From Lepidogalaxias salamandroides (lineage: Eukaryota): DNA of 64,000 nucleotides. Position numbers and translations under genes: made by a program. The stretch is taken from NCBI GenBank assembly GCA_049190665.1, contig CM110852.1. One strand, 5' to 3'. Positions 1 to 18,300 of this stretch are shown piece by piece (within the stretch, counting starts at the first letter, position 1; each line of letters begins with the position of its first letter). The notes beneath the pieces were generated by a model. It ran no database searches. It saw only the letters and a program-made list of their open reading frames with translations, and had not been told where the DNA came from.

Positions 1-1139
1 CTGAATGATTAATAAGCTATAAGGATGTTCAAATAAACCTTGTTAAAATACTTGTGAGAGTGTGGGAGTCAGTCGTTGGACTCGGGGGGGCTGGGTGAGG
101 CTGCACACCTGTGGGCCAATCTGCAATCAGGCCCACAGGCTTAAACCAGCCACCTCCACACACACTCGAGGCTGAGCCCTGTCCGGATAGTACGTACCAC
201 CTGCTCACTCATTCAACATTCATTTGGGCAATAAACCGGTTTCAACATCGCCCTGAGTCCTGTCGTCAGGGAGAGGCCCTGTAGCCACCATGTGCCTGTT
301 CATTTGGTGGCTGTGGCAAGGGGTACGTCACAATACTGTTGATCTTTTCAGACTTTATACCTCAAATGGCCGTCAAACTGGTGCATAATCAATGGGTGTG
401 ATCTTATAGGCCCAGGGGTTCAAACGTGATCCGGTCACATTCTGGCTATTGGATTAAATCCTGAAACTGGATCAGGTCATCAAATCCTAGCTGTAATCTG
501 GATCAAATCTTCAAAATGCATAGTTCAAATGTACAACATTATATATAATATAATTAATTATAAAAGAAATCTGAATATAAATAAGATGTCATAAGTGTCT
601 TCACAAAATTAATAAACACAACATTGATCACTCATTAATCAAACATGACCACTTGTCCATCTGTAACCCACATTCAACTTGTCAAAAGTCGTTTTTAATT
701 GACTTCTTAAATGGCGTTAAATGTGTATAATGCCACAGTATTCCTGATGTTGTTCTGTACATCCAGCAGGTGGCGCTATGTGGGCTTATGGACAGCCCGA
801 CCCGAACATGCATCACTGCAAACACACTCGTCTATAATACTCATCTATATCCCATGTCTTTTGAACCCTTAAACATCTTCCCGTCGTGTGGTGGTTCAGT
901 ATAGCATGCGTACAATAGTGTTGCAGGGTTCCTAACTTTAAAAACTCTATTTGACTCTTGCTGTGAACCCAGTATGGTGAATGTGTGCACAAACTTAAAC
1001 GAACAGTGTTCTCCTGCTGCACATCTGGAAAGGTTGCGTCACTGAGCAGGGCTCTGGGAACCGGACCAGAGCCCTGCTGCCAGGGTTGGGCCCAGCAGGG
1101 GGGGTCTTATGTAAGGAGAAGCTCTTCAGTCTGCCGGGG

Positions 1140-1600
1140 TTCTGCGTGGTTATATACATGCTGGAAAACCCATCCCTATGTTAATGGGATGGGTTCTGCA
1201 TGGTTCTATACATACTGTAGTAGAACCCATCCCTATTTTAATGGGATGGGTTCTGCGTGGTTATATACATGCTGGAAAACCCATCCCTATGTTAATGGGA
1301 TGGGTTCTGCATGGTTCTATACATACTGTAGTAGAACCCATCCCTATTTTAATGGGATGGGTTCTACGTGGTTCTATACATGCTGGAGAGCCCATCCCTA
1401 TTTTAATGGGATGGGTCCTACATGGTTCTATACATGCTGGAAAACCCATCCCTATTTTAATGTGATGGGTTCTGCATGGTTCTATACATGCTGTAGTAGA
1501 ACCCATCCCTATTTTAATGGGATGGGTTCTGCATGGTTCTATACATGCTGTAGTAGAACCCATCCCTATTTTAATGGGATGGGATGGATGACTGGACTTT
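1140..1600. repeat. Minisatellite, ~60 bp unit x ~8 (copy 2 at 13143..13545, ~7 units)
   Basis: Tandem units of the form ctgcRtggttMtatacatRctg...cccatccctatKttaatgggatgggtt. Each unit contains a palindromic core (cccatccc-tattttaat-gggatggg). The ORF-track ORFs 985..1623, 1178..1465 and 1261..1605 are artefacts of this repeat. Confidence 0.9.
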
Positions 1601-1849
1601 TGCATACTTGCTTACTTACATAACGTAGGAAATGGTGTTGTTAAGGTAATACGCAGGTACAAGGTATGGTTGGTGTGAAGGCTGGACCCTCCTGCATGAA
1701 TTGGTGATTTAATCCTTCATTCAGTTTGTAAGTGATGCAGGTGGGAAATAATCCAAATGCCTTTGGAATGATGGGCTGATAGGCAGACAAATGAAAGAGA
1801 GGACTGGACTAATTGATCATATTTAATTGGCCTATAAGTTACTCACTTA

Positions 1850-15000: not shown

Positions 15001-18000
15001 CGACAGACGAGACGAACAAGAAAAGTTAAAACACGACGCACTTGGATTTTGTACGATTTTTTAACTACGGCAAGCGACTGGAAATCTCCCGTCATCATGA
15101 ACCTGGTGAGATTCAGCATTTTCTGTCGGCAAATATCGTGTTTTTACAAAAAAATGCCGTTTCTGATGTTTGTTTTTGAGTCGCACCAATCATGATACGC
15201 TTTGTGAGTTCATGCTTGTTTAACGAAATATATCAACTACGAAATTAAAATGTGTGGTCTAAAGAGATCCAGGAGAGGGCGCTGTGGCGCAGGTTAAACA
15301 CGTTTGCTTTCTGTAAACATGTTCAACAATCCCAAAGCAGACGTGTACGCCTGTAATGAAGATTGTAATATGAAAGGCCCTCTTTGCCTTCACATTTATT
15401 TCATGTAGAATGTGACTTTGAATGATTGGTTTTTAATACAAGTAACCTATTAAACGGTAATGAAATGCCACCCATGGTTAATTCTGTAACACACCTGATC
15501 TCTAACCATGAATACATGAGAGAATAAAATGCTTTGGAGTTGGTCTTGAGTGCCCTCTCTTGGTATCCCACACAGGAGTGTGTGCCCCTGCCACCCTGCA
15601 CCACAGACGGCCCTGATGCTGGCTCCCCTGGTCCCAGCCAGCCCTCCTCGCCCTCCCTCCCCCTGGTTCAGGGCCACGTAGACCCGCTCCTCCACGCTCC
15701 CTCCGCGCCTACACCGGCTACTCCCGGGAGAGTTTCCAGAAGGAAGCGGGTTCGGACCTTGCGTTTCCGGGACCCGGGCGATGAGCCGAGCACCGGCATC
15801 TCTGCCGTGCCTCCGATCTCGCGGCCGGCCGGCCCTCAGGGAGGCGGAGAGGAGGGGTCCTGGAGCCCTTCTGACCCCTTCTTTTCCCAGCTGGAGGACT
15901 CCTCTCTGGCAGCTGAGGTACAGTATAAGGTCCACCTAATAGCTGGCTGCTGTTCCTTCCTGCTGCTTGGGTTCCTATAGCGTTGACCCGTCCGCCCCCT
16001 CTGTCGTCCTTTCTGTGTGTCTCTCTCTGTCTGTCAGACTCAGGAGAGGAGGCTGAGGGAGATGGTGCAGGAGCAGCGTCTGGCTGCCCTGAAGGAGCAG
16101 CATCTGGCTGCCCTGGAGGAGCCGCTGGAGGAACGCTACCTCCGCAACGCTGCCGTCTTGCCGGACTGGCGCCCCCGCCGGGCCTCCTCCCCGGCCCCAC
16201 GCGACTCGGGGTCTGGGGTCTCGCCGGCTGCGGAGGAGCCCCTGAGGATCCACGGCCTCGCGGTGGAGGAGTACCAGAGCCTCTACCACTCCGTGGTGGA
16301 CCCCCTGCTGGTCACCGCCACCGGCAAGCCCCGCCAGTACTCCCTGGAGCTGGGCCGCAAGATCAAGGAGCAGCTGTTCCGGGCTCTCTACTGCCCCGGG
16401 GACCGGTCAGGGGCCGTGAGCATCCCGCAGTTTGACCTGGACGTCAGCGGTGAGCCTAGTTGCTCGCCACCCGCCGCGAAGAGGCACCGGTGCTGAGCTC
16501 CGCCTGAGGTACAGAATGAGGTCCACCTAATAGCTGGCTGCAGTTCTTTCCTGCTGCTTCCGTTCCTATAGCGTTGACCCGTCCATGCCTCTGTCATCCC
16601 TTCTGTGTGTGTCTCTCGCTCTGTCAGGCTCAGGAGAGGAGGAGGAGGGAGGTGGAGCAGCGTCTGGCTGTCCTACCGGAGCAGCGTCTGGCTGCCCTGC
16701 AGGAGGAGTGTCTGGCTGTCCTGCAGGAGCAGCGTCTGGCTGCCCTGCAGGAGGAGTGTCTGGCTGTCCTACAGGAGCAGCGTCTGGCTGCCCTGCAGGA
16801 GGAGTGTCTGGCTGTCCTACAGGAGCAGCGTCTGGCTGCCCTGCAGGAGGAGTGTCTGGCTGCCCTGCAGGAGGAGTGTCTGGCTGCCCTGCAGGAGGAG
16901 TGTCTGGCTGCCCTGCAGGAGGAGTGTCTGGCTGCCCTGCAGGAGGAGTGTCTGGCTGTCCTGCAGTAGGAGCGTCTGGCTTCCCTGGAGAAGAGCTACC
17001 TCCACAACACCGCTGTCTTGGCCGAGGTGCCGGTGCTGAGCTCCGCCTGAGGTACAGTATAAGGTTCACCTAATAGCTGGCTGCAGTTCTTTCCTGCTGC
17101 TTCCGTTCCTATAGCGTTGACCCGTCCACGCCTCTGTCATCCCTTCCGTGTGTGTCTCTCTATCTCTGTCAGGCTCAGGAGAGGAGGTGGAGGGAGGTGG
17201 TGCAGGAGCAGCATCTGGTTTTCCTACAGGAGGAGTGTCTGGCTGCCCTGGAGAAACGCTACCTCTGCAACACCGATGTCTTGACGGAGCTGAATTGAAA
17301 TAAGGGGAGTCAGGCGACCAGTTTGTCAAAGAAAAGCATATTTATTGGTAAAGTGCGGGGAGCGGGGGTGGGGGTGTAAGGCAACTCAAATCCTTCCCGT
17401 CTGGGGTCTGGCTTCATCCGGCCTAGGGAGAGAGGGCAGAGGAGAGCGGGTAGGGTTAGTGGGGGCGGCTAGGCCCGACTCTCAGACCTCCGAGCATTGG
17501 GCCTTGGCAATTAGCCTAATGCCGCTCACCTGTTGCTGCTTGCTCAGGCAGTGAACAGGTAATTAGGGACGTACTTGCCCTCAATTAGCTTCCCCAATAG
17601 CCTGCGTTGGGGGAAGGGTCTCTGACCGTGCTGCTGAAGGGGCCTCTGATGCCTACCCCCCCTCTGCCAGGGGCACTGGGGTGCCACACCCCTAAAAACC
17701 AAACAAAAAGCAATATAAAAATACACAAAAACCTAAAAAAAAGAATGATTTATTGTCAAATTGAATTTTGTGTTTTTAACAGTATAGTCGTTAAGCTTGT
17801 TTTACAGTGGACTGGCCAGGTCTGTGTTTCTTGTCTTCAGGTTGGCTGATCCATAATTTACCGAGGAGGAGAAGATGGATGGAGACAAAGAGAGACAAAG
17901 AGGGAGAGATGCACAGCGATACAAGGAGAGCCCAAGACAGATGGAGATGAAGACAGCCTCAGGAGGAGAGAGATCAAGAGAAAGAGCTTCTCTAAGGTAC

Positions 18001-18300
18001 ACATTTGAAACACTGCTAAAGTAAGTAAAATAAGCTGCACACTGTTGTCTACTGTTGTGACAGTGCATGCTCAGTTCCTTCTCTCCCTCCATCAGGCTCA
18101 GGAGAGGAAGAGGAGCAGGGTGGAGCAAGAGGAGAACCAAGAACACAGCCGCACCCCACCACCTGATGCTTCTGCTGCCGCCAGATGACCGCCACATCAT
18201 GACCGGCCCAGAACACCACCGCCTCTCATTCATTTACACCCGTCTCTGTGTCCAATAAAGTCACACACATTGGCACACATTTCTGATTGTTGGATATTTT
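12003..18300. repeat. Segmental duplication, copy 2 of the ~6 kb block
   Basis: Same content and order as 1..5990. Differences are: one fewer unit in the hairpin minisatellite; a 3-bp indel near 15003; more 48-bp coding repeats at 16680-16960; a ~400 bp unique insert at 17300-17700; and divergent last modules. Confidence 0.9.
15097..18258 (+). CDS. Paralogous copy 2 of the coiled-coil gene (gene-level span)
   Basis: ATG at 15097; exon A 15576..15917; module B 16038..16496; module C from 16628 with ~9 48-bp repeats and an in-frame TAG at 16967-16969; a divergent module D at about 17160-17300; and terminal exons ending at AATAAA near 18250. Confidence 0.4.

Follow-up and report, generated by a model that had tools for sequence, protein, structure and literature searches.

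Positions 1-18323 of the window (the whole stretch of DNA analysed, 64,000 nucleotides, labelled Lepidogalaxias salamandroides) are best read as a real tandem segmental duplication within a beta-tubulin array, with a unit of approximately 12.0-12.3 kb (6000-18323), a reading to which a probability of about 60% is given. The locus holds a long direct repeat, a junction whose polarity can be read, a mosaic of identical and diverged tracts, an intact tubulin gene and two damaged copies of a DUF4662 gene. The half of the repeat nearer the tubulin appears, from the pattern of substitutions, to have been re-copied recently by unequal crossing-over or gene conversion. The features of the repeat are as follows.

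1-5999, plus strand: block copy 1, aligned to 12004-18323, its 5' side cut by the window edge; contains a tubulin-type 3' flank, a transposon-rich spacer and DUF4662 gene copy 1.
1-3680, plus strand: putative homogenised tract of copy 1 (partner 12004-15632), left limit beyond the window.
1137-1583, plus strand: 57-bp hairpin minisatellite, 8.1 units (TRF, fold z = -9.7, inverted repeats).
5155-5369, plus strand: non-homologous segment of copy 1 (counterpart 17251-17688), comprising the third exon-like module and the sequence after it.
6000-12003, plus strand: inter-copy segment, with 1.5 kb of DNA before the beta-tubulin gene, the gene itself and 237 bp past its stop codon.
12004-18323, plus strand: block copy 2 (self-BLAST, MAFFT), 3' side complete, with hake sequence colinear across its end to ~18385.
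18386-18634, plus strand: older partial third block start, directly after copy 2, homologous to 12075-12336 at ~70-80% identity.

Self-BLAST and a global MAFFT alignment of the window paired 1-5999 with 12004-18323 in direct orientation on the same strand, with HSPs of 3.7 kb at 97.9% and 1.5 kb at 98.0% and an identity of 94.5-100% per segment; a match of this kind cannot be due to chance. As in a tandem segmental duplication, the copies are direct, adjacent and separated by a nearly constant offset, which indels widen from 12,003 bp at the beginning of the repeat to 12,325 bp where it ends. The first-pass annotation had described a ~6 kb block that recurs downstream with the tubulin gene between the copies, and a period of ~12 kb; the alignments and a splice model of the gene bear out both claims. 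Its statement that the window starts exactly where copy 2 starts describes a limit imposed by the window edge and no feature of the DNA.

Length variation is concentrated in repeats, as had been claimed and as TRF and the alignment confirm. Copy 2 is longer by 144 bp in a coding repeat, and a 215-bp segment of copy 1 is replaced by a non-homologous segment of 438 bp; the difference noticed earlier in the last modules of the coiled-coil gene is real and consists of this replacement (5155-5369 against 17251-17688). The hairpin minisatellite has 7.1 units in copy 2 (13140-13532), in agreement with the 8 and 7 hairpin units first counted, but its period is 57 bp (54-57) and not 60 bp. Tandem repeats make up 13.6% of the window. 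A search of the whole window against Rfam returned no RNA genes, and the hairpin minisatellite thus has no match among described RNA families, including those of miRNAs. Seven open reading frames of the window had no entry in the protein collection.

The two copies end differently when compared with the DUF4662 units of the hake Merluccius polli, which are colinear with copy 2 through 18381-18385 and with copy 1 only to 5994-5999. Colinearity past the end of copy 2 but not of copy 1 marks 5999|6000 as the derived junction, and this novel junction links the end of a unit to the start of a unit, as expected of tandem duplication. A simple tandem event therefore requires the unit 6000-18323 (12.3 kb), tubulin included. 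At the start of the block, window positions 327-631 match two segments of the grenadier (Coryphaenoides rupestris) locus L002, 13608-13748 and 18416-18073, each ~250 bp past a tubulin stop codon, and the block start is thus native tubulin 3' flank. No tubulin precedes the third, partial block start at 18386-18634; block-type sequence can thus be duplicated without tubulin.

Divergence between the copies is significantly non-uniform. Substitutions number 0 in ~2,020 non-repeat sites before 2519, 4 in 1,160 sites from 2519 to ~3680 and 32 in 1,276 sites after ~3680; identity is perfect over 1-2526 outside length-variable repeats, and divergence over ~3680-5995 (~2.3 kb) is 2.5-3.6%. A discrete switch point, as left by gene conversion or unequal crossing-over, was placed at ~3680 (LRT 58, reached in 0 of 300 permutations). 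Between the gene halves of the two copies the synonymous distance is dS = 0.057, and the non-coding 3' flank of the DUF4662 gene differs by 3.6%, so that the divergence reflects age and not selection; selection was rejected as an explanation for the more diverged gene half, since the flank and the synonymous sites have diverged equally. The mosaic points to an older duplication whose tubulin-proximal side was homogenised later. Hake is equally far from the two copies (dS 0.2055 and 0.2043), which are therefore lineage-specific duplicates; for the same reason donor and acceptor of the homogenised tract cannot be assigned, and in the hake comparison no homologue of the tract was found before ~3110. 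The "very few substitutions" of the first-pass annotation hide a sharp mosaic. Of its "young duplication or ongoing gene conversion", conversion fits the mosaic, whereas the duplication is not uniformly young. Unequal crossing-over or gene conversion is known to drive the concerted evolution of tandem duplicates in globin, opsin and amylase arrays. The window resembles these in its direct repeats, long identical tract, sharp switch and older diverged tract, and departs from them in that its tract, at least 2.5-3.7 kb long, is open-ended at the window edge and has no assignable donor or acceptor.

The gene between the copies and the repeats in its introns are listed below.

7527-11766, plus strand: beta-tubulin gene, 7 exons, 444 aa (splice model), intact, no stop codons.
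7527-7583, 7702-7810, 9280-9390 and 9697-9941, plus strand: exons 1-4 (splice model).
10030-10352, 10986-11330 and 11622-11766 (including the stop), plus strand: exons 5-7 (splice model).
7843-8919, no strand assigned: hAT-type non-autonomous transposon in tubulin intron 2, with 12-bp TIRs CAGAGGTGTCAA and an 8-bp target duplication TGTAGGAC.
10365-10964, plus strand: 23-bp minisatellite, 26 units, filling tubulin intron 5 (TRF).

All six introns are of the GT-AG type. The product scores above thresholds for Tubulin (PF00091, 215.8 bits) and Tubulin_C (PF03953, 148 bits) in Pfam and is identical to KAM9158625.1, an annotated tubulin labelled Lepidogalaxias salamandroides, which is the single accession for this exact protein in the protein collection. 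Window positions 7295-7812 are homologous to the stretch of a grenadier tubulin gene that runs from the promoter to exon 2 inclusive. Recent segmental copying of this tubulin type is shown by two chimeric tubulin models, nearly identical to each other, which sit on two further contigs under the same species label. Intron 2 opens with ~2.5 units of the intron-5 23-mer, and fragments related to its hAT-type transposon are found in the block copies at 2800-2953 and 14750-14903. Three extra tubulin introns (after codon 174, in codon 282 and in codon 397) are shared across fishes and characterise a beta-tubulin subfamily common to gadiforms and one notothenioid; no literature was found on beta-tubulin intron gain in teleosts.

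The other gene of the unit is present in both block copies.

3298-4954, plus strand: DUF4662 gene copy 1, exons 3298-3340, 3621-3965, 4086-4490 and 4677-4954.
4702-4891, plus strand: 24/48-bp coding repeat in DUF4662 exon 4, encoding (LQEECLAVLQEQRLAA)n, 4.0 units (TRF).
15250-17050, plus strand: DUF4662 gene copy 2, with the same exon-1 deletion, a nonsense codon and three extra 48-bp repeat units.

What the first-pass annotation had called a coiled-coil gene belongs in both copies to the DUF4662 family (PF15578; 68.4 and 69.2 bits against a cut-off of 27). Unlike the hake gene, exon 1 of both copies carries a 71-bp deletion that places exon 2 out of frame, and exon 4 of copy 2 carries a GAG-to-TAG nonsense codon at 16967-16969; neither copy has the open frame that runs intact from the start codon in the orthologue of hake. 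Because of the common frameshifting deletion and the nonsense codon of copy 2, the gene is probably pseudogenised in both copies, and an alternative first exon may be used. The coding repeat had been counted as ~4 against ~9 units of 48 bp; the 4.0 units of copy 1 agree with this, the partner in copy 2 (16654-16987) has about 7, and the period is 24/48 bp. No papers on DUF4662 were found in the literature.

Tubulin genes of the same exon structure form arrays, mostly head to tail, in Dissostichus mawsoni (L005; three 7-exon copies in 16 kb), Muraenolepis orangiensis (L006; three in 20 kb) and the grenadier (at least three in 20 kb), and the grenadier array also has the 3' flank found at the block start. 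These arrays have periods of 5-11 kb and no DUF4662 gene between the copies, whereas in the window a captured DUF4662 unit, transposons and minisatellites appear to have expanded the spacer to 6 kb. The DUF4662 array of Merluccius polli (L001; hypothetical protein N1851_026572) holds the same gene, 73% identical in protein and 84-91% identical in DNA with introns counted, likewise in tandem and with the same internal exon-like modules; unlike in the window, the hake units recur every ~3.6 kb, their exon 1 is intact and 21.6 kb of the locus contains no tubulin. As no DUF4662 gene lies between the tubulins of the three comparator fishes and the hake DUF4662 arrays are free of tubulin, the combined unit is unprecedented elsewhere. 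Parker and Detrich reportedly described an alpha-tubulin gene cluster of the Antarctic fish Notothenia coriiceps (J Biol Chem 1998). That cluster resembles the window in its closely linked, recently duplicated tubulin genes and differs in being of alpha-tubulin and of mixed orientations; Notothenia is a cold-water fish, and the likeness implies no cold adaptation for the window.

A further tubulin gene is probably present upstream of the window, outside the visible DNA. It is made likely by the derived junction 5999|6000, the tubulin-type 3' flank at the block start and the arrays of three other fishes; doubt arises because 18386-18634 follows no tubulin and because the exact protein has one accession, where a second one would be expected had an identical upstream copy been annotated. 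The duplicated unit would comprise 1.5 kb of upstream DNA, the intact 7-exon beta-tubulin gene with the 3' flank native to it, a spacer rich in transposons and minisatellites and an already disabled DUF4662 gene. The window would then open within the previous unit, with copy 1 as the tail of that unit, and another tubulin would most likely end ~240 bp before position 1. At least three layers of history are proposed: an old duplication of the block, of which 18386-18634 would be the remnant (20-30% diverged); the duplication that would have formed the two present units, with gene halves now ~3% apart; and a recent unequal crossover or long gene conversion that would have made the tubulin-proximal 2.5-3.7 kb identical, with its switch point between ~2519 and ~3680.

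The repeat might instead reflect a duplication of the ~6-kb block alone, copied to the other side of a single tubulin gene, or, as a variant weighed jointly with it, the insertion of a tubulin segment into an older block-block tandem. This is possible but unlikely. It is favoured by the tubulin-free block-block junction at 18385|18386, by the tubulin-free tandem array of DUF4662 units in hake and by the single tubulin accession, but it requires a non-tandem or two-step event. Copy 1 moreover stops at 5999 without the ~60 bp found after copy 2 and the hake units, and adjoins DNA that lies 1.5 kb upstream of the tubulin; its first 631 bp are native tubulin 3' flank, 100% identical to that of the visible gene, and three other fishes carry this tubulin type in tandem arrays. 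An assembly artefact, with two haplotypes laid in tandem or real differences erased by polishing, is improbable. The window contains no Ns, the junction 5999|6000 joins non-homologous sequences, for which an overlap assembler needs truly spanning reads, and the copies differ in structure and by 3-3.6% over 2.3 kb, which is high for alleles. The perfect identity of 1-2526 could be the product of a retained haplotype or over-polishing in this minisatellite-rich region, but polishing is not expected to leave a sharp change point.

That the block, or tubulin and block together, is a self-copying mobile element or a horizontally acquired segment is very improbable. Transposon fragments do occur within the block, near-identical tubulin models lie on three large contigs, and, should the Lepidogalaxias label hold, the non-coding identity to hake is higher than expected. 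However, the block ends (12004, 18323) lack terminal inverted or direct repeats and a target duplication, and no transposase is encoded, the only candidate being a 94-aa reading frame, located in a small hAT-like insertion within the block, whose DUF4371 match falls below threshold; on these grounds the block was ruled out as a transposon. The transposons present are ordinary small insertions inside the block, and the DUF4371 fragments near the hake genes and those near the window genes show no mutual homology. The tubulin dS matrix groups the whole gene with gadiforms, for which a wrong species label is the simpler explanation. The locus is ordinary biology, most likely a tandem duplication with later partial re-copying.

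The species label itself conflicts with the gadiform sequence affinities. Tubulin dS is 0.29 to the grenadier and 0.86 to the toothfish; a PARP4 exon homology search yielded only short fragments from scattered taxa and so carried no information on affinity, and no Lepidogalaxias genome paper was found in the literature. If the label were right, the intron identity of 84-91% to hake and the gadiform-like tubulin dS would suggest that a segment of at least 18 kb with tubulin and DUF4662 was horizontally acquired and is now tandemly amplified; this is extremely improbable, as is the transfer that it would entail between fish lineages whose split dates back more than 200 million years. Mislabelling of the species or a mixed-up sample accounts for the affinities much more simply.

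A 12-kb unit with 2.5 kb of perfect identity is a hazard for assembly collapse and read mapping. The three-extra-intron tubulin subfamily and the label conflict, although side findings, may outweigh the duplication in usefulness. The tandem duplication adds one more case of a tubulin array that evolves in concert, here accompanied by a probable hitch-hiking pseudogene, and counts of beta-tubulin genes for this locus may be too low.

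Comparing the window with itself and aligning 1-6300 globally to 12004-18700 bears out the duplicated block of the first-pass annotation: 1-5999 matches 12004-18323 in the same orientation. Indels shift the offset between the copies from 12,003 bp at the start to 12,325 bp at the end, and the window contains no N. Length differences had been described for two repeats, and both are present. The hairpin minisatellite has a period of 57 bp, not 60 bp, with 8.1 vs. 7.1 units, and folds far above shuffled sequence (z = -9.7). The coding repeat (24/48-bp period) is 144 bp longer in copy 2, which holds about 7 units of 48 bp, not about 9, against 4.0 in copy 1. 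The last modules of the coiled-coil gene also differ, 5155-5369 standing opposite unrelated sequence at 17251-17688. The observation as a whole is confirmed.

The first 631 bp of the block are tubulin-type 3' flank, with 327-631 homologous to DNA that, at two tubulin copies in the grenadier Coryphaenoides rupestris, lies about 250 bp 3' of the stop codon. The spacer that follows holds the hairpin minisatellite, a (CA)n tract and an approximately 1-kb hAT-like insertion (13812-14780, with 30-nt inverted arms) with a DUF4371-like ORF whose match is sub-threshold. A DUF4662 (PF15578) gene (68-69 bits, cut-off 27) takes up the final 2.9 kb; its closest relative is a hypothetical protein of the hake Merluccius polli (73% identity). 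The gene comprises three tandem modules (3958-5260; 15913-17300), each an intron of about 115 bp plus a coiled-coil exon with a QERR start, and the hake gene is built alike. In hake the gene forms a tandem array of approximately 3.6-kb period with no tubulin. Exon 1 of both copies (3298-3340 and 15250-15292) carries a common 71-bp deletion relative to hake that leaves exon 2 out of frame, and copy 2 has an in-frame TAG from a GAG-to-TAG change at 16967-16969. Barring another first exon, both copies are probably pseudogenes; omega is 0.42 between the copies and 0.55 against hake.

The copies diverge as a mosaic along the block, with substitutions counted outside the length-variable repeats:

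Before 2519: 0 substitutions in about 2,020 sites
2519 to 3680: 4 substitutions in about 1,160 sites
3680-5154: 32 substitutions in 1,276 sites
5370-5995, non-coding 3' flank: 3.6% divergence

A single change point at about 3680 gave a likelihood-ratio statistic of 58, reached in none of 300 permutations, and the identical tract extends as far as the window edge. Synonymous divergence between the copies is 0.057 in DUF4662 exons 2-3, and both are equally distant from hake (dS 0.2055 and 0.2043). The gene halves are therefore lineage-specific duplicates of moderate age, and the tubulin-proximal half was homogenised much more recently. The earlier interpretation is supported in part: ongoing gene conversion fits the mosaic; a uniformly young duplication does not, given the divergence of the gene halves and the 3' flank.

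A tblastn search with the human TUBB sequence found seven coding blocks between the copies. Joined at GT-AG sites, they encode an uninterrupted 444-aa protein with Tubulin and Tubulin_C domains, matching KAM9158625.1 (tubulin beta-4B chain-like [Lepidogalaxias salamandroides]) without a mismatch from end to end; that accession is encoded on a 38-Mb contig. Three of the introns are canonical for vertebrates and three additional ones divide the usual large last exon.

Features of the beta-tubulin gene (window coordinates)
7527-11766, plus strand: beta-tubulin gene
7843-8919: hAT-type non-autonomous transposon in intron 2, bounded by 12-bp terminal inverted repeats and flanked by an 8-bp target duplication
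9942-10029: first extra intron, after codon 174, 88 bp
10353-10985: second extra intron (intron 5), in codon 282, 633 bp, nearly all 23-bp minisatellite
10365-10964: 23-bp minisatellite, 26 units, filling intron 5
11331-11621: third extra intron, in codon 397, 291 bp

These three introns are absent from canonical vertebrate beta-tubulin genes, and the last exon of hake tubb4b is uninterrupted as usual. The tubulin arrays of Coryphaenoides, Muraenolepis and Dissostichus have extra introns at identical positions. A literature search found no paper on the gain of beta-tubulin introns in teleosts. The same 23-mer recurs as about 2.5 units at the start of intron 2, abutting the 5' splice site and split by the transposon (7811-7842, 8920-8966); the grenadier introns lack the array. 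Sequence seems to have been exchanged between introns 2 and 5. Fragments related to the intron-2 transposon lie in both blocks (2800-2953 and 14750-14903).

Alignment of hake units to copy 2 continues about 60 bp past the end of the copy, to 18381-18385, but alignment to copy 1 stops at 5994-5999. This colinearity marks the right flank of copy 2 as ancestral and 5999|6000, which lies 1.5 kb 5' of the tubulin start codon, as the derived junction. A single tandem duplication creating that junction must have had 6000-18323 as its unit, tubulin included, which is the model of the first-pass annotation. The prior for such a unit is raised because native tubulin 3' flank opens the block, and because tubulins of the same seven-exon type form tandem arrays in Dissostichus mawsoni (three copies within 16 kb), Muraenolepis orangiensis (three in 20 kb) and Coryphaenoides rupestris (at least three in 20 kb). 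Against it, the start of the block recurs as an older, partial copy abutting copy 2 at 18386-18634, with no tubulin ahead (80% identity over 205 bp, 70.6% over 371 bp), so duplication of the block alone has occurred at this locus; the exact tubulin protein is moreover a single accession in the protein collection. On balance, a further tubulin upstream of the window is given a probability of roughly 0.65.

The mosaic, with its identical tract 5' of the switch point and older divergence 3' of it, is the pattern expected from gene conversion over a long tract or from unequal crossing-over within a tandem array. If misaligned units had exchanged unequally, at a crossover somewhere from about 2519 to about 3680, the product would be a hybrid unit and then a parental one, the order observed. 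The upstream tubulin would then be identical to the visible one, and a third unit may exist further upstream. An assembly artefact is less likely, since the new junction joins unrelated sequences with no gap and the copies differ structurally and by 3-3.6% over 2.3 kb.

Lepidogalaxias salamandroides is the label on the one exact protein match, but sequence affinities disagree with it. The DUF4662 unit shares 84-91% identity with hake, introns and exons alike; tubulin intron 3 shares 76% with grenadier; and identity to Muraenolepis is about 80% from tubulin exon 3 to exon 5, introns 3 and 4 included. Against the toothfish Dissostichus, alignment is confined to exons and the short intron 4, with none in intron 3. 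Over tubulin codons 57-281 the window shows dS of 0.29 to grenadier, 0.42 to hake and 0.86 to toothfish (grenadier vs. toothfish, 0.99), which places it with gadiforms, apart from the percomorph. As sister to all other euteleosts, the Lepidogalaxias lineage would not be expected to fall within these comparisons. The simplest explanation is a problem with the label or the sample; horizontal transfer as the source of the gadiform affinity is remote. Tandem repeats make up 13.6% of the window, a high density that would be typical of gadiform genomes.

Elsewhere in the window, two paralogous proline-rich ORFs (466 and 205 aa) with a common N-terminus lie at 23732-26600 on the minus strand; neither has a Pfam match. 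A 560-bp segment is duplicated there (24914-25469 vs. 26041-26576, 87.6% identity), and the region is another local duplication. A large C-rich minisatellite (49437-50456, 52-bp period, about 21 units) is followed just 3' by a LINE reverse-transcriptase fragment (50572-51697). Neighbouring genes comprise PARP4-like exons (about 36000-42300, minus; PARP catalytic, VIT and vWA domains) and cyclic-nucleotide-gated or HCN-like channel exons (about 59000-64000, plus). For the channel exons, the Ion_trans match narrowly clears its Pfam cut-off (26 vs. 25 bits), and the voltage-sensor and cNMP-binding motifs come from inspection by eye. Matches to the PARP4 exons, examined for species affinity, were only short fragments in scattered taxa. 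Beyond the window, two 552-aa 'partial' tubulin models of the same species label (P0018, P0019), each on another large contig, are one residue apart and have a common internal duplication of exons 3-5, a pattern suggesting that a partly duplicated tubulin was recently copied between chromosomes as a segment. A metagenome contig (ENA ERZ26222911) carries a DUF4662 unit about 74% identical to window and hake alike, adjoining a gene call with a match to Toluene_X, presumably a bacterial family; the contig may be chimeric, or fish DNA may have entered the metagenome.

Overall, the locus is a beta-tubulin array in which an ordinary tandem segmental duplication has undergone concerted evolution, and it carries a DUF4662 gene that is probably dead. 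The practical importance of the duplication is as a hazard for assembly and annotation.
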